DNA of 53,871 nt from a virus (lineage: Duplodnaviria; Heunggongvirae; Uroviricota; Caudoviricetes): positions 1 through 53,871 of IMG/VR virus record IMGVR_UViG_2718218453_000001; one strand, given 5' to 3'. The position numbers and the translations under genes are program-made. Under the pieces are notes generated by a model, which saw nothing but the letters and a program-made list of their open reading frames with translations, had not been told where the DNA came from and ran no database searches. Shown here in pieces: positions 18,259-41,106 of the stretch. Each line of letters opens with the position of its first letter. Position 1 is the first letter of the stretch.

Positions 18259-19212
18259 TTAATGCTCTGCCGCCAAAGTGCCGCCAGTCTTTCTTGAATC
18301 TTCTAATGCTTCATGATCTTTAATTAGTACCTTCAACGAGTTAATTACTTTAATTTGGCATTCCTTAATTAAGTCAGGTAATTTTTCATCAATCTTTGTT
18401 TCTTTTGAATAGAATAAAGTTCTGTTAATGCAATTTTCCAGTCCTCCACTCTCATTCAAATCGGGGAATAGTACAAATCTCCCAAATGCAATGCCATTTT
18501 CCACTTCAACATATACCTTTGGGTGCTCATCTATATAACCGTGGTGAATTATATGATTTCGTAATGATGTTACAGTGTTTATAAAATTGCTATTTTCAAA
18601 TATGGTATCCGTTGTTGTCGAAAAAACTAATTCTTTATAGTTGCCGTATAATTTATTTTTGGATATTAATTTCTTGTATTTAGAGATTGGGAAGTTACTC
18701 TTTAATAATTCAAAGGAGATTTTAGTAACGTAGTCAAACAAACTATTCATTTTTATAAATAGCATGCTTAACAAAGAAAATAGCAAGCTTGTTTTTGGCG
18801 ATTTTGCTACTAAAATCCCTTTAAAATCTTTGTCTGGTGTGGTTATTAACAAATCGCTCCAGAGTATTTCATAAAATTGTTGCGCTATAACAGAGAGTTC
18901 CAAACTACACTCTGTTATATATGAAATTAAGACTTCACAGTCTTGGATGTAAAGAATGTTTGAATCAAAAAATTGCGTTAATTTATTAAAAGTGTTTTTG
19001 CAAACTTGAGATTCCGAGTTATGACCAACATCTCTGATAGTGTAAATGTTAGATTCTTCGGCGATGGAAATCCTTTCTTTTATTTTATCGAAAATTGCAT
19101 ACAGGGCTATACTTAGATTTTCGATTTCATATTGTTCGTTTGTATAGATGATGTTATTCATCAGATCACTTCCTATTTCTATAATGGAGTTAGAGGTTTT
19201 TTGTAACTGCAT
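18259..19212 (-). CDS. Hypothetical protein, partner of RES-like gene (cargo)
   Basis: 317 aa, strongly AT-rich, ATG with AAGAGG RBS, 33 nt downstream of the RES-like gene. Confidence 0.65.
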   Translation of the reverse strand: MQLQKTSNSIIEIGSDLMNNIIYTNEQYEIENLSIALYAIFDKIKERISIAEESNIYTIRDVGHNSESQVCKNTFNKLTQFFDSNILYIQDCEVLISYITECSLELSVIAQQFYEILWSDLLITTPDKDFKGILVAKSPKTSLLFSLLSMLFIKMNSLFDYVTKISFELLKSNFPISKYKKLISKNKLYGNYKELVFSTTTDTIFENSNFINTVTSLRNHIIHHGYIDEHPKVYVEVENGIAFGRFVLFPDLNESGGLENCINRTLFYSKETKIDEKLPDLIKECQIKVINSLKVLIKDHEALEDSRKTGGTLAAEH

Positions 19213-19245
19213 CCTCTTAATACTCTACCGCCAAAACGCCGCCAC

Positions 19246-20457
19246 TTAAGGCTCAAGATAATCATGCTTCATCATTTTATGAATTAACAATTGAACTTTT
19301 TTGAATGAGGTATTATTGTAATATTCCACTAGCGATTCATCAAAATCTTCAATTGTACCTGATGCTGGAGTTGGTCCTCCCATTATGAGTCTATCTTCAT
19401 CCATACCATCGGTCTTGACGTTTAAAGTGCTAAATACTTGCCATGAAACAGGTTTGGTAAATTTAAATATATTTAGTAAGTGTGGGCAGTAATCATAACC
19501 AGAATCCAAAATATTATCCATTTTAGGTGGCATGATTATATTAATACCAATATCACTATCTTTTTGATTGAGAATTTTAGTCGTGCGATAAGCGATACCG
19601 GCTATGCCCTTATTTTCATTGCTGCTGAGCCATTGCATAAGAAGGTTGGGGATTATGTACTCAGGGTTGAAACTAGAGTTTTTATGTTGTTTTGTATAAT
19701 TACAGGCTAACACAAGTGGCCAGGAAATTAAGTTCGAAATGACCCTATTCATAGTTCCTTCAGTATCATTATCTAACAGCCATGCTAAGGTGTTTATGTT
19801 CAATGCTGATCTCAAATTATAACCAAGGTTAAGTATTCTATGTGATGAACCAGACTCTGTGATGAATGAAGATACATATAATTTATCAAAGTCTGGTTTT
19901 TCCATTTCTTGCCAACATACAAAAATAGAGGTTCCTAAATATAAACAAGGAAGGCCTGAGACTGAGTATCTTTGTGCATTCACAAGATAACGTTTAGAAA
20001 AAGGAATATGAAAGATATCACGCCTTTCTTTTATTATTTGATCGCTTTTTCTTACGCGAAATAGAGGTTTTCCAGGATGACAAAACACACTTAATGGAAC
20101 GGACATATTATAGATGTGGTCATTTATATTTGTCTTGGTGATAGCGTGATCAAATGTTAGGTAAGATTCTTTGATTTTACCGTTTAAATATAATCTAAGT
20201 GTTTCTGAAATTTTATCCGAGAGTGTTTTTGTGCTTTTTATTTTTGATTTTATTTCACGAATTACAAGGTTGTGAGGGTTTTTACTGTAAATCTTGTTTA
20301 TGACTTCTAGGTAACATTTAACCCTATTGTTAAAATCTTTAATGATATTATTTCCCGCGAGATAAGGAGCTTGTAATAGTGGTTTGGACTCTATTTCGAA
20401 TAATATTTCATTAAGCATTGCTACATAATCTGTGGTACTAATTTTATTAATTTTCAT
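19246..20457 (-). CDS. RES-domain-like protein (cargo)
   Basis: 403 aa, AT-rich; segment QRYSVSGLPCLYLGTSIFVCWQEM resembles the RES-domain core (Arg ... Glu); starts 4 nt after int stop. Confidence 0.65.
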   Translation of the reverse strand: MKINKISTTDYVAMLNEILFEIESKPLLQAPYLAGNNIIKDFNNRVKCYLEVINKIYSKNPHNLVIREIKSKIKSTKTLSDKISETLRLYLNGKIKESYLTFDHAITKTNINDHIYNMSVPLSVFCHPGKPLFRVRKSDQIIKERRDIFHIPFSKRYLVNAQRYSVSGLPCLYLGTSIFVCWQEMEKPDFDKLYVSSFITESGSSHRILNLGYNLRSALNINTLAWLLDNDTEGTMNRVISNLISWPLVLACNYTKQHKNSSFNPEYIIPNLLMQWLSSNENKGIAGIAYRTTKILNQKDSDIGINIIMPPKMDNILDSGYDYCPHLLNIFKFTKPVSWQVFSTLNVKTDGMDEDRLIMGGPTPASGTIEDFDESLVEYYNNTSFKKVQLLIHKMMKHDYLEP

Positions 20458-20461
20458 TATG

Positions 20462-21481
20462 TTAAATCGCTAGTGATGATAAAGGGTTTTTTGTTACAGC
20501 ATCTTCAAGATGCTCAGGTGAAAAATGAGAATAGACCATAGTCATTTTTATATCTGAATGGCCTAAAATATCTCTTAGTACAAGAATATTCCCTCCATTC
20601 ATCATAAAGTAACTGGCGAATGTATGGCGCAAGACGTGGGTACATTGTCCCTCTGGCAAGTCGATACCAGCTCGTTTAACTGCACGCTCAAAAGCTTTTC
20701 TGCATGGGGTGAATAACTTCCCTCTGTTCTTGGGGAGTTCGTCATACAGATCCTGAGATATCGGCACGGTACGGTTTTTCTTGCCCTTCGTCTTGGTATA
20801 AGTGATGCGGTATTTTGATAACTGATGGCCCTGCAGGTTTTCTGCTTCACTCCACCGCGCACCAGTAGCTAGGCATATTTTTGCAATCATCAGCAGGCTG
20901 GGGCTTTGAGAATCCGCGCAGGCATCCAGCAGGCGTTTAATTTCTTCTGGGGTCAGGAATGCCAGTTCACCCTCTGCGATTTTGAATGTTGGCAGACCGG
21001 CGAGCGGGTTAGGGGCTGACCAGTGGCCCAGTTTTTTCAGAGTCCCAAAAACTGATGATAGGTTGCGTTGTTCGAGGTTTACCGTTCGGGGCTTAACTGG
21101 CGACATAAGCGCGCCATCTTCATTTCGCACTTCACCTTTTAATCGCGCTTCACGGTATTTCGTAAAATCTCCGGCGGTCAGCTCTGAGGCGATAGGGTCG
21201 CCCAGGCCATTACAGATAATTCTAAGTTTCGCCATCAGGCGTTTGGGGTCTGCGAGCGTCTGCCCGTATAGTGAGTGCCATTGCTCTATCACTTCTGACA
21301 GATGCCGCCGATCTTCCTTTTCCCCCAGCCATGGTTTTTTGTTTACTTCATCCATGGTGAAGTTTTCGAATGCTACGGCTTCGCCTTTCGTCGCAAATTG
21401 CTTGCGCACGCGCTTGCCGTCCCGCCCGTTAGGGTAGCACTCACACAACCATTTTCCGTTCGGCTGTTTACTGATGGTCAT
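20462..21481 (-). CDS. int: P2/186-type tyrosine integrase
   Basis: 339 aa; C-terminal HVLRHTFAS...ILGHSDIKMTMVYSH catalytic motifs; position next to the repressor gene. Confidence 0.9.
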   Translation of the reverse strand: MTISKQPNGKWLCECYPNGRDGKRVRKQFATKGEAVAFENFTMDEVNKKPWLGEKEDRRHLSEVIEQWHSLYGQTLADPKRLMAKLRIICNGLGDPIASELTAGDFTKYREARLKGEVRNEDGALMSPVKPRTVNLEQRNLSSVFGTLKKLGHWSAPNPLAGLPTFKIAEGELAFLTPEEIKRLLDACADSQSPSLLMIAKICLATGARWSEAENLQGHQLSKYRITYTKTKGKKNRTVPISQDLYDELPKNRGKLFTPCRKAFERAVKRAGIDLPEGQCTHVLRHTFASYFMMNGGNILVLRDILGHSDIKMTMVYSHFSPEHLEDAVTKNPLSSLAI

Positions 21482-21483
21482 GA

Positions 21484-22116
21484 CTAAATACTCTTGATTA
21501 CTTTAATGGCTCGCCCGACAACTTCCACATCATCAACAGAACACTCAAAGGATGAGTCGTCCTGGTGAACAACAATTCTGTTGCCTGGTATTCGGGCAAT
21601 CTTGACGATGCTTTTCACCCCATCAATATCGACAAGCCAGTAACCATTGCTAACCTGTTTGACAGATATATCCACTACAAAGCAGTCAGTAGACGTTTTT
21701 ATAAACAATGAATTGCCGGGCTCACTGTCCAGTAAGCTGCTATCAAGCAAGACTTCCCCTTCGTTATTCAACTCCCCATTCTTCAATTCGGCTTGCTTAA
21801 TGCTGGGGGCAACGATTTTGGAAAGTGGTCGAAGCGTGACGTTTGACTCGTTTACGGGATTTTTTTCTCGATCTTCTGAAGTGAACATTTCACCCTGGCC
21901 TGTGGCTAGCCATAGCAGCGAAACCCCTGTTTCAAGTGCACACTGGATGACCCACTCAGCAGGAAAGCTATCTCGTAAGTTTCTGTTTGCCATAGTGCTT
22001 TTTGAAATTTTTAAATGGTCAGCTAGTGCTTGTTTGGTGCTGAATCCATATGCCTTAAGCAATCTTTCGATCGCCTCTCTACCTCCCGTATTGGGACCTG
22101 CCTGAATGTTGATCAT
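21484..22116 (-). CDS. cI: 186 CI-like immunity repressor
   Basis: Divergent from the apl-cII operon, adjacent to int; HTH-like N-terminus; start chosen at second ATG with GGAG RBS. Confidence 0.7.
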   Translation of the reverse strand: MINIQAGPNTGGREAIERLLKAYGFSTKQALADHLKISKSTMANRNLRDSFPAEWVIQCALETGVSLLWLATGQGEMFTSEDREKNPVNESNVTLRPLSKIVAPSIKQAELKNGELNNEGEVLLDSSLLDSEPGNSLFIKTSTDCFVVDISVKQVSNGYWLVDIDGVKSIVKIARIPGNRIVVHQDDSSFECSVDDVEVVGRAIKVIKSI

Positions 22117-22235
22117 CAAATACTCCATTGACGACCACTTAAAGTGATCGTAGTATCGCGATTATCCCGCAAGGGGAATCCTGAAAAGTGAGCTAAAACG
22201 AGATAAAACTAACTTAAATCTAAGGATACTGCACT

Positions 22236-28695: not shown

Positions 28696-28829
28696 TAGAA
28701 ACAGTCGTTTGTTTACAAACAGATACTATGATTTTCAATGTTCTTTCAAATTGTTGCTTTAAGATAGCAGGTAGATGTTTGTAGTTGTTGCGTGAACTGA
28801 TAAGCTTCAACAACTATCGAGGAAAGGAT

Positions 28830-29897
28830 ATGAAGCGGCTAACTGAAGAACAAATTGAACATTCTTTGATCAGAGCAAGGAAGATTGCGAAGCGGGAGTC
28901 AAGAAAGCTTTCTGGTGGAAGACGGATGCTACAGCCCATGCGGGTATTCTCTCGTGTGAGAATACCCGCGCCTGCGTCATTGGACTTATTTAATACTAAA
29001 AATTACAAACTATTTATAGAGTTTATCACTTTAATCAGAGATTACATCAATGATGGTGAGAAAATTTTAATAGATTTCAGAAATACAAAATCTCTGAAAG
29101 CATGTGCAGTAATCGTATTGTATGCACATATTGACTTTTTACAAAGGCAAACAAAAGATAAAAATATAATTTCTATTACTACGTGCGGTTCACCCAGGGC
29201 AAATAACTGGTTTAAAATATGTGGTATTTGGGGGATTACAGGGTTTCAGCGTATAGCTGCAGATAAGCTTAATTCAATGGAAATTGTTTCCGCTGTTGCA
29301 GGCAAAACTAGAGATGATCATGAAAGTGCCGAAGCAAGACAAAAAATTAAAAATATTCTACGTTATATAAAAGATACCATTTATGAAGGTAAGATTTCCG
29401 CTTCGGATGGTGTGAAATTATATGCAGCATTAACTGAATCTATTAGCAATGTTGGTCTACATGCGTATTCAAATGAAGAACAGTTCTCTGAATTTATTGA
29501 GGACATTGGTAAAAGATGGTGGATATTGGCACACAAAGTCGAAGAACAACTATTTTTGATGGTGTATGATATGGGAGAAGGTATCCCAGTTACATTGGTT
29601 AAAAAAGACTTTTTCACATTTATCGCTCAGATATTTAATCCTAAGACGGATTCTGATAAAATATTCGCGGCTGTACAGTATGGTGAGACAAGAATGAATA
29701 GTCAGAAGCATGGTAAAGGATTACCTGATATGAAAAGGTATGTTGTAGATAACCCTGAGGGGCAGTTACATATTTTTAGTGGAATGGGACGATATTCTTA
29801 TGATGCTGAAAATAATGTTGAAGATAAATTTGATCTGCCATACTCCATAGGTGGAACCCTTATTCAATGGAATGTAAGTTTGAGAGGTGCTGAATGA
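28830..29897 (+). CDS. RsbW/SpoIIAB-like GHKL kinase/ATPase domain protein (cargo gene 1)
   Basis: AT-rich; GHKL motifs: N-box ESISNVGLHAY, G1 VYDMGEGIP, G2 GKGLPD; start at ATG 28830 with GAGGAAAGG RBS; inverted repeat TAGTTGTTG / CAACAACTA just upstream. Confidence 0.7.
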   Translation: MKRLTEEQIEHSLIRARKIAKRESRKLSGGRRMLQPMRVFSRVRIPAPASLDLFNTKNYKLFIEFITLIRDYINDGEKILIDFRNTKSLKACAVIVLYAHIDFLQRQTKDKNIISITTCGSPRANNWFKICGIWGITGFQRIAADKLNSMEIVSAVAGKTRDDHESAEARQKIKNILRYIKDTIYEGKISASDGVKLYAALTESISNVGLHAYSNEEQFSEFIEDIGKRWWILAHKVEEQLFLMVYDMGEGIPVTLVKKDFFTFIAQIFNPKTDSDKIFAAVQYGETRMNSQKHGKGLPDMKRYVVDNPEGQLHIFSGMGRYSYDAENNVEDKFDLPYSIGGTLIQWNVSLRGAE

Positions 29898-30214
29898 AAA
29901 TCAAAGAGATACATGTTGCTGAAGATTTTTCAGATGTTCCCTATGGCCGCTATGATGAGGATGGTCCTGATAATGGACAACGTTTCCGTGAAAAGTATCT
30001 TTTGAAAGCCATCCAAGATTATGATGAGGTGCACGTGTACCTTGATGGTGCTATGGGTTATGGTTCTTCATTCTTGGAAGAGGCGTTTGGTGGACTTTAT
30101 AGAACAAATAATATAGATAAAGCTATAATTAGGAAAAAATTAAAAATATTTACTGATTTGGATTTCCTCAAGGATAGTATATGGGGATATATTTCTGATG
30201 CTAAAAAGGAGTGA
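29894..30214 (+). CDS. STAS-like (anti-sigma-antagonist fold) small protein (cargo gene 2)
   Basis: 106 aa, ATGA overlap with gene 1; VHVYLDGAMGYGSSFLEEAFGGL resembles STAS/DUF4325-like sequences. Confidence 0.6.
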   Translation: MKIKEIHVAEDFSDVPYGRYDEDGPDNGQRFREKYLLKAIQDYDEVHVYLDGAMGYGSSFLEEAFGGLYRTNNIDKAIIRKKLKIFTDLDFLKDSIWGYISDAKKE

Positions 30215-30219
30215 TGTTC

Positions 30220-30708
30220 ATGGATGAACTTCCGGTTTATCTGCGGTTATTACAATACCTTGCTAGTTCAGGTGTGATTGCAATTCTAACAGCCTTGATT
30301 GGTTGGGTTTTTGTATATAGAAACTCCCGTGCGTTGCAAAAGAGGAGTGAAACATGGTCAATTGTAAAAAATGTTTCAGATAATTTAAAGGAAATTGAAT
30401 CTGCATCAAGAAAGTTTTGGATACCGGGAGATTCAAAAGAAATTGATGCAATGTCATTTCAAAATGAGATAACAGCACTTCTTGCGGAGACCGAGCGGTG
30501 GTTGAATCATCTAAAACAACGCATTAATATCGAAGGTGACTATAAACCTTTGATTGCTGATTTATTCAAAGATGCTACATCTAATATTGAAAAAGCACAG
30601 GAGTATGATAAAAGTCAAAGGACAAGAATTAGTGTATTAGTGTCAAAAAGGGCGAAAATAATTAAATCTCTAATTGATGAGTCTTATCAGAAAAAATTCT
30701 TAAAGTGA
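30220..30708 (+). CDS. Small membrane protein (cargo gene 3)
   Basis: N-terminal hydrophobic helix LASSGVIAILTALIGWVFVY then charged helical region; AAAGGAG RBS 8 nt upstream; overlaps gene 2 stop. Confidence 0.6.
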   Translation: MDELPVYLRLLQYLASSGVIAILTALIGWVFVYRNSRALQKRSETWSIVKNVSDNLKEIESASRKFWIPGDSKEIDAMSFQNEITALLAETERWLNHLKQRINIEGDYKPLIADLFKDATSNIEKAQEYDKSQRTRISVLVSKRAKIIKSLIDESYQKKFLK

Positions 30709-38569: not shown

Positions 38570-38702
38570 CGGTGATCTGAGCGCATTGCTGGATGAAACG
38601 GAAGCCGCCTGGGCGGTCTGTGCAGATAAAGTGGACATGATTATTGCGTGTCAGGAGCGAAACAGTGAACAAACCACAATCCCTGCGCCACGCCCTCAAT
38701 AA
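38412..38702 (+). CDS. lysC: LysC / Rz1-like o-spanin (overlapping frame)
   Basis: Lipobox LTLSGC; embedded in and extending beyond lysB; start codon uncertain (GTG). Confidence 0.55.
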   Translation: MRTRIYAAGLILLCLLTLSGCENVRHSPEVQLTVSGCPRVTPCRLDQAAPHTNGDLSALLDETEAAWAVCADKVDMIIACQERNSEQTTIPAPRPQ

Positions 38703-39096
38703 AGCGGTGCCTTATGTCCGCAATAACCCGGACAAACTGCATCTGTTTGTGGATAACGGTTCGCTGGTTGCTACAGGGGCCAGCTCCATGTCATGGGAGT
38801 ATCGTTACACCCTGAACGTGGTGGTTGAGGATTTCAGCGGCGACCAGAATCTGTTGATGGCCCCGGTTTTGCTGTGGCTGCGGGATAACCAGCCCGATGC
38901 CATCAATAACCCGGCGTTACGGGAAAAGCTATTCACCTTTGAGGTGGATATTCTGCGCAACGATGTCTGTGATATCAGCCTTAACCTGCAACTGACGGAA
39001 CGTGTGCTGGTCAGCACTAACGGCAGTGTGTCGAGCGTTGAAGCTGTAGCAGAACCCGATGAACCTGAAGAAATGTGGACGGTGAAACGTGGCTGA
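38665..39096 (+). CDS. R: Tail completion protein gpR
   Basis: GTG start with AGGAG RBS; P2 R position. Confidence 0.75.
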   Translation: MNKPQSLRHALNKAVPYVRNNPDKLHLFVDNGSLVATGASSMSWEYRYTLNVVVEDFSGDQNLLMAPVLLWLRDNQPDAINNPALREKLFTFEVDILRNDVCDISLNLQLTERVLVSTNGSVSSVEAVAEPDEPEEMWTVKRG

Positions 39097-39538
39097 ACTG
39101 CAGAAGGTGGACGACTGGCTGAGTGCCTTGCTGGCGAATCTGGAACCAGCCACGAGAAGCCGCATGATGCGCCAGCTGGCGCAGGAACTGCGCCGGACAC
39201 AGCAGCAGAATATCAGGATGCAGCGCAATCCAGATGGCAGCAGTTATGAACCGCGCAGGGTAACAGCACGCAGCAAAAAAGGCCGCATCAAACGTCAGAT
39301 GTTTGCAAAGCTGCGCACCACAAAATACCTGAAAACTGCCGCCAGCGCCGGCTCTGCCAGCGTACAGTTTGAAGGCAAGGTGCAGCGTATTGCCCGTGTT
39401 CACCATTACGGCCTGCGCGATCGCGTTAGCCGTAACGGCCCAGAAGTGCGCTATGCGGTGAGGAAGTTGTTGGGTATCAACGAAGAAGTGGAAACTTTAA
39501 CTCAAGACATATTATTAATGTGGATATCCAGGAAGTAA
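39089..39538 (+). CDS. S: Tail completion protein gpS
   Basis: 149 aa; P2 S position. Confidence 0.8.
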   Translation: MAELQKVDDWLSALLANLEPATRSRMMRQLAQELRRTQQQNIRMQRNPDGSSYEPRRVTARSKKGRIKRQMFAKLRTTKYLKTAASAGSASVQFEGKVQRIARVHHYGLRDRVSRNGPEVRYAVRKLLGINEEVETLTQDILLMWISRK

Positions 39539-39650
39539 TATTAGGTGATAAGGGAATGCGTAGACTCTTGCTAATTCCATGATCTTTCTCTTATTTTTTA
39601 ATGCCGTGATCTGATACATTGCCCTCTAGAGTTTGAGTTAGGAGGGTGTT

Positions 39651-40451
39651 ATGTCTGAAAAGTTAATTTTTTTATCCCATATAACAGAAGAAAAAGAATT
39701 AGCGAAAATAATCAAAGATGCAATTGAAGACGAGTTTTCTGGATTCGTTGAAGTGTTTGTATCGTCAGATGGGAATACAATTAAAGCCGGTCAAAATTTC
39801 TTAAATGTTATTGAAAATGGGTTAGTAAATTGTATTGCTGCTATTTATCTGATAAGCCCAGAATCTGTCCAGAGAAGCTGGATTAGTTTTGAGTTAGGGG
39901 CTGTATGGGTTAGAAATGCTATCAGCCGGCAAAACGGCGGGCCAGAAATCCCTGCTATTCCTTTTTGCCACTCGGATATGACGTTTAGAGACTTGCCCCA
40001 ACCTATCTGTAATCTAAATGGTATTGAAGCAAACCGATCTCATTCCTTGGAGTTTGCATTTAAGTCGATTCAGACCGCTGTTGGAGGAAAAGGACGATTG
40101 AGAACTGATTTTGATGTTCTTGCCGAGAAAGTTAACATTTTTGAGAGAGATTATACAGTCTTCAAAAGTATAGGCGAAATTCTCGGTTTAATTGGTGTAG
40201 ATAGCCAGCGTCGCGCACAATTAGTTCAGCTTGTTAATAGTTCAGCAGAGAATGAAGTTATAATTAAAACTGATACTAGGCAGGATTCAGCAGATATAAT
40301 ATTTAAATTAGTTGATACTAAGTTAAGTCATTTCGCTAAATATAAAGTAACATCTTCTGGTTTAGGTATGGGACTTCAAGGCGCTTCTCCTTTCTGTGAA
40401 TTTGAATTGAGAATGGATCGGAAAATACTCAGTGATTACTTGGCTCGATAG
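39651..40451 (+). CDS. TIR-domain-like protein (cargo in S-V slot)
   Basis: AT-rich 266 aa; N-terminal IFLSHITEEKELAKIIKDAIED...VEVFVSS...ISPESVQRSWISFELG resembles TIR motifs including a conserved Glu; AGGAGGG RBS. Confidence 0.65.
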   Translation: MSEKLIFLSHITEEKELAKIIKDAIEDEFSGFVEVFVSSDGNTIKAGQNFLNVIENGLVNCIAAIYLISPESVQRSWISFELGAVWVRNAISRQNGGPEIPAIPFCHSDMTFRDLPQPICNLNGIEANRSHSLEFAFKSIQTAVGGKGRLRTDFDVLAEKVNIFERDYTVFKSIGEILGLIGVDSQRRAQLVQLVNSSAENEVIIKTDTRQDSADIIFKLVDTKLSHFAKYKVTSSGLGMGLQGASPFCEFELRMDRKILSDYLAR

Positions 40452-40463
40452 TTTCTATTACCT

Positions 40464-40481
40464 TGTGTGAGGTGCCACACA
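40464..40481 (+). promoter_or_regulatory. Late promoter dyad TGT-N12-ACA upstream of V
   Basis: TGTGTGAGGTGCCACACA; a hairpin gcctgcca/tggcaggc with T-run follows at 40500-40524. Confidence 0.45.
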
Positions 40482-40527
40482 ATTCCCTATATTACTAAAG
40501 CCTGCCAATTTCTGGCAGGCTTTTTCT

Positions 40528-41106
40528 ATGAACGCACAATTAACCGAAATCATGCGCCTTATCACCAACCTGATCCGCACTGGGGTAGTCACCGAAGTGG
40601 ACAGGGAAAACTGGCTTTGCCGGGTGAAAACGGGCGAGCTTGAAACCAACTGGATCAGCTGGCTGACGCTGCGTGCCGGGAATGCCCGCACATGGTGGCG
40701 ACCATCGGAAGGTGAGCAGGTGGTGCTGCTGAGTCTGGGCGGAAATCTGGAAACCGCCTTTGCGTTGCCCGCTGTCTATTCGAATCAGTTCGCGCCACCG
40801 TCGACGTCGGCAGACGCCTGCGTGACAGAACATCCTGACGGCGGCTGGTTTGAATACGAGCCCACCACCGGGCGCTGGTATGTCAGAGGCATCAAATCCA
40901 TGGTCATTGAGGCTGCCGACAACATCACCCTGAAAACCTGTGAGTTTGTGCTGGAGGCTGACCGCACGCGTATTAACAGCGAAGTGGTGATCAATGGTGG
41001 CGTTACCCAGGGCGGCGGTGCGATGAGTTCTAACGGGATTGTGGTTGATGCGCATCAGCATACTGGCGTCCTGAAAGGCGGCGATACAACCGGAGGCCCG
41101 GTATGA
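40528..41106 (+). CDS. V: Baseplate spike gpV
   Basis: Strong similarity to P2 gpV as recalled (WISWLTLRAGNARTWWRPSEGEQV). Confidence 0.9.
   Translation: MNAQLTEIMRLITNLIRTGVVTEVDRENWLCRVKTGELETNWISWLTLRAGNARTWWRPSEGEQVVLLSLGGNLETAFALPAVYSNQFAPPSTSADACVTEHPDGGWFEYEPTTGRWYVRGIKSMVIEAADNITLKTCEFVLEADRTRINSEVVINGGVTQGGGAMSSNGIVVDAHQHTGVLKGGDTTGGPV

Follow-up and report, generated by a model that had tools for sequence, protein, structure and literature searches.

The closest described systems are TIR proteins that act alone against phages. SpbK from ICEBs1 of Bacillus subtilis (PDB 9phb) consists of a single protein, a TIR NADase that is activated when the dodecameric portal protein YonE brings its TIR domains together (PMC12847820). 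[quoted passage not shown] Other TIR proteins work with partners. Thoeris is defined by its ThsA-ThsB pair, ThsB being a group of short TIR proteins with variable surfaces that recognize different phages, and SPARTA TIR-APAZ, TIR-SAVED and TIR-STING depend on an Argonaute or on a cyclase-made nucleotide signal.

P2-like prophages are known reservoirs of defense genes, with hotspots described between A and Q (PMC9122126) and at fun(Z) (PMC9519451). The P2 morons, i.e. old/tin at A-Q, fun(Z) at G-FI and orf30 at S-V, are AT-rich and non-essential cargo varying between syntenic prophages. The S-V slot has been mentioned as variable (PMC6823313), and no description of it as a defense hotspot was found in the papers surveyed here. 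We analyzed a cassette with the same properties as these morons that occupies the S-V slot of a P2-like (Peduoviridae) prophage and carries a single gene for a TIR-domain protein. The window, meaning the whole stretch of DNA analyzed, is 53,871 nucleotides long and includes the prophage integrase (20462-21481), the CI repressor (21484-22128) and late genes extending to approximately 52 kb.

Results

Features of the slot are listed in Table 1. An earlier note, made from the sequence of the window, had described an AT-rich open reading frame of 266 codons with a strong ribosome binding site between the tail genes S and V, and this description is borne out, with the reading frame at 37% GC. The predicted protein is identical to NCBI WP_001504072, annotated as "toll/interleukin-1 receptor domain-containing protein", and the identical protein occurs on at least 1000 public contigs, where it carries the generic label "TIR domain-containing protein". 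The GC fraction is 0.34-0.42 over positions 39500-40550 compared with 0.54-0.60 on either side, and for the gene alone 0.37 compared with about 0.56 around it. When the gene was compared with alleles of 91% and 86% identity, dN/dS was 0.04-0.05 over residues 1-168 but higher, at 0.18-0.21, over residues 169-266. This purifying selection, together with the existence of hundreds of full-length homologs, indicates that the gene is real.

Table 1. Positions of genes, protein regions and regulatory elements in and around the S-V slot (window coordinates).
Feature	Position	Strand	Description	Basis
gpR	38644-39096		Upstream of gpS	Pfam
Gene S	39089-39538	+	Tail completion/virion morphogenesis; closes the P2-type O late operon	Pfam Phage_tail_S, 1.4e-40
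Cassette	39451-40523		Variable AT-rich cargo cassette; S-V slot, equivalent to the P2 orf30 slot	Composition and comparison with empty-site relatives
Spacer between S and TIR gene	39539-39650	+	Block ATGATCTTyCTCTTA conserved among three alleles	Alignment
Shine-Dalgarno sequence	39640-39645	+	AGGAGG, 5 nt before the TIR ATG	Read from sequence
TIR-domain protein gene	39651-40451	+	266 aa, ATG start
Extended TIR module, residues 1-168	39651-40154	+	Conserved; betaA FLSH, BB-loop FVSSDG..AG.NF, W77-x3-E81, C106-H107-S108
W77-E81 codons	39879-39893	+	TGG ATT AGT TTT GAG; WxxxE motif with putative catalytic Glu
Interdomain linker helix, residues 154-180	40110-40190	+	Long helix	AlphaFold models
C-terminal domain, residues 169-266	40155-40448	+	Hypervariable, alpha+beta; helix, then beta-alpha-beta-beta-alpha
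TGT-N12-ACA dyad	40464-40481	+	Predicted Ogr/Delta-type activator site of P_V	Pattern and position relative to P2
Putative terminator	40497-40523	+	11-bp G+C-rich hairpin with T-rich tail	Lies between P_V dyad and V start
Gene V	40528-41106	+	Baseplate spike; first gene of the V late operon	Pfam Phage_base_V and Apex

The slot had been equated with the one where P2 carries a non-essential open reading frame, and the P2 record does place Orf30 in the same interval. Gene order in that record is S, a "putative rho-independent terminator for O operon", Orf30 (non-essential, minus strand), the pV activator site and V, with transcription of the V operon starting at the first base of the V coding sequence. 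In close relatives, including Escherichia phage 500465-1 and many Klebsiella phages, the S-V junction is empty and only 68 bp long, while S and V align with the window at 93-97% identity. Homology to 500465-1 is lost within S, at approximately 39450, and picks up again a few nucleotides ahead of the V start codon; the last 29 or so codons of S (about 39451-39538) are AT-rich, diverged from the empty-site relatives and part of the exchanged cassette. The AT-rich cassette therefore begins further to the left than the interval given in the earlier note, at about 39450 within the 3′ end of S. No direct or inverted repeats flanking the cassette were found. Insertion of a transposon or integron type was rejected on this ground and on the position of the junctions, inside S and at the start of V, a combination that fits exchange of the cassette by homologous recombination.

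The TIR gene shares the properties of orf30-slot cargo in that it comes after the S stop codon and before the position of the P_V activator, is absent from close relatives and has an anomalous composition. A structural tail protein was considered and rejected, as close relatives have the empty junction and the gene is found in only about 2% of sister prophages. The prospect that homologs might turn out to be structural phage proteins can likewise be set aside since the gene is absent from close phage relatives. Six other cargos were seen in this slot, namely P2 Orf30 (261 aa), a 176-aa protein in Cartapus, a 283-aa protein in RE-2010, two Klebsiella phage proteins (288 and 230 aa) and an FRG-domain protein in SEN8. 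All six are antisense, whereas the TIR cassette is in sense orientation and holds the position of the O-operon terminator. The SEN8 protein matches PDC-S15, a single-gene defense candidate in PADLOC, at 3e-31.

The N-terminal part of the protein had been called TIR-like, with a candidate catalytic glutamate, and both points are now well founded. The motifs named were located at residues 6-10 (IFLSH), 33-39 (VEVFVSS) and 76-83 (SWISFELG), and Pfam TIR_2 (PF13676) matches residues 6-90 with 32.4 bits, above its gathering score of 28. Matches found by phmmer among PDB sequences were bacterial TIR NADases (7uxr at 1.4e-4, AbTir and SpbK), with weak matches to the TIR domains of Brucella BtpA/TcpB (E 0.11-0.47). 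The AlphaFold model had a pLDDT of 86.4, and the top Foldseek matches were all TIRs, including SPARTA TIR-APAZ (1e-6) and AbTir (target-normalised TM-score 0.70); matches to BtpA and to the anti-Thoeris factor 9b7d, a ThsB binder, were also recorded. In a comparison of fold membership, the TIR-type flavodoxin-like fold matched TIRs better than generic alpha/beta folds. W77 and E81, within SWISFELG, align in the phmmer alignment with WTNYEL of AbTir, in which we take the tryptophan and glutamate to be W204 and E208, with E208 the catalytic residue. Both W77 and E81 were invariant in 52 aligned family members. A generic flavodoxin-like fold without the catalytic glutamate was rejected because the fold matches were specific to TIRs and E81 was kept in 133 of 134 representatives. 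The product is thus a genuine TIR-domain protein with an intact catalytic motif, and its sequence predicts that it is an NADase.

Matches to models of known defense systems were weak and confined to the TIR part. Among PADLOC models, ThsB1 matched with 16 bits (E 1.6e-3); PDC-S66 matched at E 8.9e-7 but only positions 151-231 of its 282, i.e. its C-terminal TIR, were aligned, to residues 6-90; and spbK was matched only over profile positions 148-235, again the TIR part, by residues 3-89. NCBIfam yielded weak matches to retron-TIR and Thoeris type III models, similarly limited to the TIR part. Pfam ThsB_TIR was near its cut-off only in longer relatives of the family and was not reported for the TIR protein itself.

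The family shows a clear two-domain pattern of conservation. Mean pairwise identity was 69% over residues 1-168, with many invariant positions, and 23% over residues 169-266. Counts in 134 divergent representatives were 134 for W77, 133 for E81, 134 for G83, 132 for C106, 128 for H107 and 133 for P118. The C106-H107-S108 motif is specific to the clade, and its Cys-His pair lies outside the canonical TIR motif. The C-terminal domain is a putative sensor or specificity domain. Its dN/dS of approximately 0.2 represents faster evolution, short of demonstrated positive selection, and comparison of folds found no structural relative or known sensor for this fold of about 95 aa. Homologs that match over their full length, with 262-294 aa, are present in Enterobacteriaceae, Yersinia, Vibrio, Aeromonas, Pseudomonas, Vreelandella and Bacteroidota. 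When 1.84 billion cluster representatives were searched exhaustively with a profile, 213 clusters were recovered at E <= 1e-30 and a total of 1389 at E <= 1e-10, with clusters counted at 50% identity. Distant relatives, with total lengths of 320-490 aa, keep the module of about 170 aa and have different C-termini, and no Pfam annotation was found for these swapped C-termini.

The TGT-N12-ACA pattern of Ogr/Delta-type activator sites occurred 11 times in the window, which is not above chance, and four of these occurrences were at positions expected for late promoters: two in the divergent region between P and O, one before FI and one between the TIR gene and V. The last is downstream of the TIR stop codon, is at a constant distance from the V start codon in five loci including an empty site, and is positionally homologous to the P2 feature "activator binding site; activation of pV promoter". 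Its location beyond the stop codon, and the position of orf30 in P2, put the TIR gene where the O late operon ends and the V late operon begins. The earlier claim that the gene interrupts the tail operon is therefore correct as to its place between S and V but not as to the operon, since the gene is situated at the O/V boundary and not inside an operon.

Downstream of the TIR gene, the RNA fold of 40452-40535 had a free energy of -26.4 kcal/mol (z = -4.8). The hairpin within it is kept by compensatory changes in other TIR alleles and is missing at the empty site, and it likely marks the end of the O-operon/TIR transcript. No terminator-like structure was found between S and the TIR gene (39539-39650), where the RNA fold had z = +0.72. 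With no terminator after S and a hairpin after the TIR gene, the gene is effectively appended to the O operon, and co-transcription with late genes is plausible. No sigma-70 consensus promoter was detected upstream of the gene at the threshold of the promoter scan, and sites picked out by eye were too weak to be listed. Expression is probably by read-through from the O late operon, and the gene probably has a weak promoter of its own as well. A known RNA element in the cassette was considered and rejected; the only match was to GlmZ, with 22.7 bits compared with a gathering score of 60, and is attributed to the terminator hairpin.

Alleles in the S-V slot of other P2-like prophages had identities of 86% (from a metagenome), 63% (Salmonella) and 54% (E. 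coli). The 91% allele, from Klebsiella aerogenes, is in a decayed prophage remnant that has only a truncated fragment of S and lies beside IS and integrase fragments; this allele is found in many assemblies and is under purifying selection. An allele in Yersinia follows gpU, at another operon boundary of the P2-type tail cluster. In Pseudomonas, Bacteroidota and Aeromonas, members of the family stand alone on the chromosome, away from any phage genes. Among 50,697 deposited phage genome records no close homolog was found; the only matches were in Streptococcus prophages such as Javan47, where the TIR module has 32% identity over 180 aa and the gene is flanked by the late activator and the small terminase, another classic moron slot. 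In complete E. coli genomes, 19 copies of the window allele and two of a 271-aa allele were found for approximately 1038 copies of this type of S, i.e. about 2%, and one of the 19 is split by IS1 near codon 178, between the two domains.

The gene is solitary throughout. Its neighbors in the window are gpS and gpV, in agreement with the earlier statement that no partner gene is adjacent, and no ThsA-type gene was seen in homolog contexts. No neighboring gene was common to the Pseudomonas, Bacteroidota, Aeromonas, Yersinia and Klebsiella contexts, such that the proposed check for co-occurrence with TIR partner genes yielded no conserved partner. Thoeris or another two-gene system was accordingly rejected, for want of a partner in any homolog context examined.

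Discussion

A catalytic TIR domain joined to a fast-evolving domain, autonomy as a single gene and residence in accessory slots of prophages together make up the pattern of single-protein TIR abortive infection. By analogy with the systems that have this pattern, we consider it reasonably probable that the protein is a stand-alone TIR sensor-effector of the prophage, carried as moron cargo at the P2 orf30 slot and serving to exclude other phages. The N-terminal module would be an NAD+ glycohydrolase, with the W77/E81 active site forming only when TIR domains cluster. The fast-evolving C-terminal domain and the linker helix would bind a component of an infecting phage, the trigger being, by the same analogy, probably an oligomeric structural protein. 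Binding would gather the TIR domains and lead to cleavage of NAD+, after which the infected cell would arrest or die before the competing phage could finish its cycle, a form of abortive infection or superinfection exclusion. Several observations weigh against this proposal: only 37.5% of the E. coli TIR candidates tested were active (PMC11350192), the PADLOC matches are weak and limited to the TIR part, the faster evolution of the C-terminal domain falls short of demonstrated positive selection, its fold resembles no known sensor, and none of the 50,697 deposited phage records has a close homolog.

We propose, again by analogy, that the protein works like SpbK and TIR-V/IX, but it belongs to neither family: its domain order is reversed, the recognition domains are unrelated and matches to defense models are limited to the TIR part. 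In SpbK the recognition domain is N-terminal and the TIR C-terminal, which is the opposite of the order here. [quoted passage not shown] The TIR of TIR-V and TIR-IX is C-terminal, and their C-termini superimpose while their N-termini differ, whereas the protein studied here has its TIR at the N-terminus and varies at the C-terminus. The TIR protein may fall into one of the 64 TIR clusters surveyed in E. coli (PMC11350192), and would already be known if it belonged to TIR-VI or another validated cluster; equally, it could be among the candidates that tested negative. ThsB is similar in its TIR fold and catalytic glutamate, but Thoeris is a pair and the absence of a linked ThsA argues that this gene is not Thoeris. 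The APAZ, SAVED and STING domains at the C-termini of SPARTA TIR-APAZ, TIR-SAVED and TIR-STING are unrelated to the C-terminal domain of about 95 aa found here.

An alternative explanation could be that the protein is a factor of benefit to the phage itself, made with the late genes. Such a factor might use up or modify immune signals derived from NAD, weaken NAD-dependent host defenses, hinder satellites of the P4 type or condition the cell before lysis, which corresponds to the counter-defense or signaling-interference role raised in the earlier note. The arrangement of the slot is what speaks for it, and this arrangement, which would suit a late-expressed phage function, also counts against defense: the gene points the same way as the O operon, no terminator follows S and the sole terminator follows the TIR gene, no sigma-70 consensus promoter was found upstream, and the orientation is distinctive since all other S-V cargos seen are antisense. 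However, many members of the family are solitary chromosomal genes away from phage genes, the K. aerogenes remnant retains the gene under purifying selection without a late operon, and approximately 98% of sister prophages do without it. In addition, no TIR-domain counter-defense protein was found in the literature surveyed on TIR and P2 defense, the anti-Thoeris factor 9b7d being a ThsB binder, and such variability at the C-terminus is more usual in sensors. Evidence leans to defense over counter-defense, and we regard a late-expressed phage-benefit factor as unlikely.

Another explanation would be that the protein is an orphan generator of the Thoeris kind, which on sensing infection produces a cyclic ADPR-type messenger for an effector that the host encodes at another locus. 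However, neither the window nor nine homolog contexts have a ThsA-type gene (SIR2/SLOG, Macro/TM or caspase-like) next to the TIR gene, and a single-gene cassette spread over Enterobacteriaceae, Vibrio, Pseudomonas and Bacteroidota cannot rely on finding a matching effector. We consider this explanation improbable. A selfish toxin of the addiction type, or a gene with no function that is tolerated in a permissive slot, would be consistent with the IS1-split copy among the 19 in E. coli, which hints at a cost, and with a slot that accepts unrelated cargo; against this, there is strong purifying selection on both domains, the reading frame is intact in nearly all copies, no antitoxin-like neighbor was seen and full-length members occur broadly across phyla, making this very improbable. 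Lastly, a virulence effector of the TcpC, BtpA or TcpB type, directed at animal Toll-like receptor/MyD88 signaling and carried for lysogenic conversion, is brought to mind by the gene's place as a moron in prophages of E. coli, Salmonella and Klebsiella and by the weak BtpA/TcpB sequence matches and the Foldseek matches to BtpA, but is the least credible explanation given that the family reaches marine and environmental Bacteroidota, Vibrio, Aeromonas and Vreelandella, that no secretion signal or delivery domain is evident, that the catalytic glutamate and the whole TIR surface are strongly constrained while the C-terminus diverges fast, and that the best structure and sequence matches are NADase TIRs and not adaptor mimics.

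The TIR protein represents an uncharacterized, widespread family within the known class of stand-alone TIR defense candidates. What is interesting about it is the compact C-terminal domain without a known fold, the additional near-invariant Cys-His pair and the wiring into a late operon. A more far-reaching reading would combine these features, with S-V as a third defense-cargo hotspot of P2 and the family as a new class of single-protein sensors expressed last in a late operon; we think this combination doubtful, but if it were true the TIR protein could act during the lytic cycle of the prophage itself, against satellites or co-infecting phages, and not solely in the lysogen. The co-orientation of the cassette with the late operon in any case raises the question of when prophage defense genes act.

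If the role in defense is correct, the S-V junction would be another site at which P2-like prophages may be mined for defense genes, and the protein would have an unusually compact architecture, with an enzyme of approximately 170 aa joined to a specificity domain of approximately 95 aa. The natural series of alleles in a single slot would be a convenient model for activation of TIRs by recognition and for the evolution of specificity. One-gene TIR immune sensors of this kind would then be widespread, extending from Proteobacteria and Bacteroidota to prophages of Streptococcus.

Results and Discussion

The AT-rich 3′ end of gene S, the tail gene immediately upstream of the TIR gene, differs in sequence from that of empty-site relatives, and each type of cargo in the S-V slot, whether TIR alleles or Cartapus, is accompanied by its own S C-terminus. 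These cargo-specific termini therefore place the recombination junction inside an essential tail gene. At least six further unrelated cargos occupy the slot in other genomes, all of them antisense to the late genes. The FRG-domain protein of Salmonella phage SEN8 matches the PADLOC defence candidate PDC-S15 (3e-31), and the remaining cargos, P2 Orf30 among them, have no match in Pfam or PADLOC.

Features in the window and in compared loci
Feature	Sequence	Position	Description
Gene S 3′ end	Window	39451-39538	Last ~29 codons, AT-rich
C106-H107-S108	Window	39966-39974	Clade-specific, within TIR module
L115-P116-Q117-P118	Window	39993-40004	Clade-specific, within TIR module
Terminator hairpin	Window	40497-40523	Between P_V activator dyad and V start
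A-Q ORFs	Window	28785-30708	Three co-directional ORFs (370, 106 and 165 aa), cos-proximal hotspot
Integrase-side ORFs	Window	18259-20457	Two ORFs (317 and 403 aa), minus strand, adjoin prophage integrase
S-V cargo	Salmonella phage SEN8 (L020)	465-1400	FRG-domain protein
S-V cargo	P2 (L019)	940-1725	
S-V cargo	L003, L021, L022, L023		
TIR gene, Streptococcus phage Javan47	L014	6001-6753	250 aa
TIR allele, Yersinia kristensenii	L018	5001-5807	51% identity
TIR allele, Klebsiella aerogenes	L015/L016	2426-3801	91% identity
TIR copy with IS1, E. coli 4012	L024 (NZ_CP103626.1)	713-2289	Insertion near codon 178

To judge from the homologous region annotated in the P2 record, transcription of V, the gene downstream of the slot, would start at the first base of its coding sequence, so that the V mRNA would be leaderless, and there is no Shine-Dalgarno sequence upstream of the V ATG (window 40464-40528). 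Where prophages carry the TIR gene, the core-promoter region of P_V, the late promoter of the V operon, is filled by a strong terminator hairpin. A weak match to the Rfam family GlmZ_SraJ (window 40311-40528; 22.7 bits, with the gathering cut-off at 60; E 0.004), covering the TIR-gene 3′ end and this hairpin, was taken as chance.

Two clade-specific residue groups lie within the TIR module but outside the canonical TIR NADase motif. They hardly vary: among 134 divergent representatives of the family C106 is conserved in 132, H107 in 128 and P118 in 133. Family members also occur at other sites. The Javan47 protein, from a Gram-positive prophage, combines the family's conserved TIR module, with 32% identity across 180 aa, with a different C-terminus, and its gene is flanked by those for the late transcriptional activator and small terminase. 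In the P2-type tail cluster of Y. kristensenii the TIR allele, close to a Fic-domain gene, follows gpU at the junction with an inverted V-W-J-I-H module, so that the family uses a second boundary within tail clusters.

The A-Q region is a known defence hotspot of P2 phages (PMC9122126), occupied in the related prophage of E. coli VG1046-3E9 by a retron St85 reverse transcriptase and effector instead. In the window the middle A-Q ORF matches Pfam DUF4325 (STAS-like, 3.5e-12), the sole Pfam match of the three, and none matches PADLOC; the set may be an uncharacterised defence candidate. Neither integrase-side ORF has a Pfam or PADLOC match.

One of 19 E. coli TIR copies is interrupted by IS1 between the TIR module and the C-terminal domain, a situation reminiscent of TIR-V, whose inactivation by IS1 or IS4 under trigger toxicity has been reported (PMC11350192). 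The K. aerogenes allele lies in a decayed prophage remnant, with S reduced to a 117-aa fragment, adjoining fragments of integrase and IS genes and a Mrr_cat gene. The allele was found again in many assemblies, and this recurrence suggests domestication of the TIR gene by the host.
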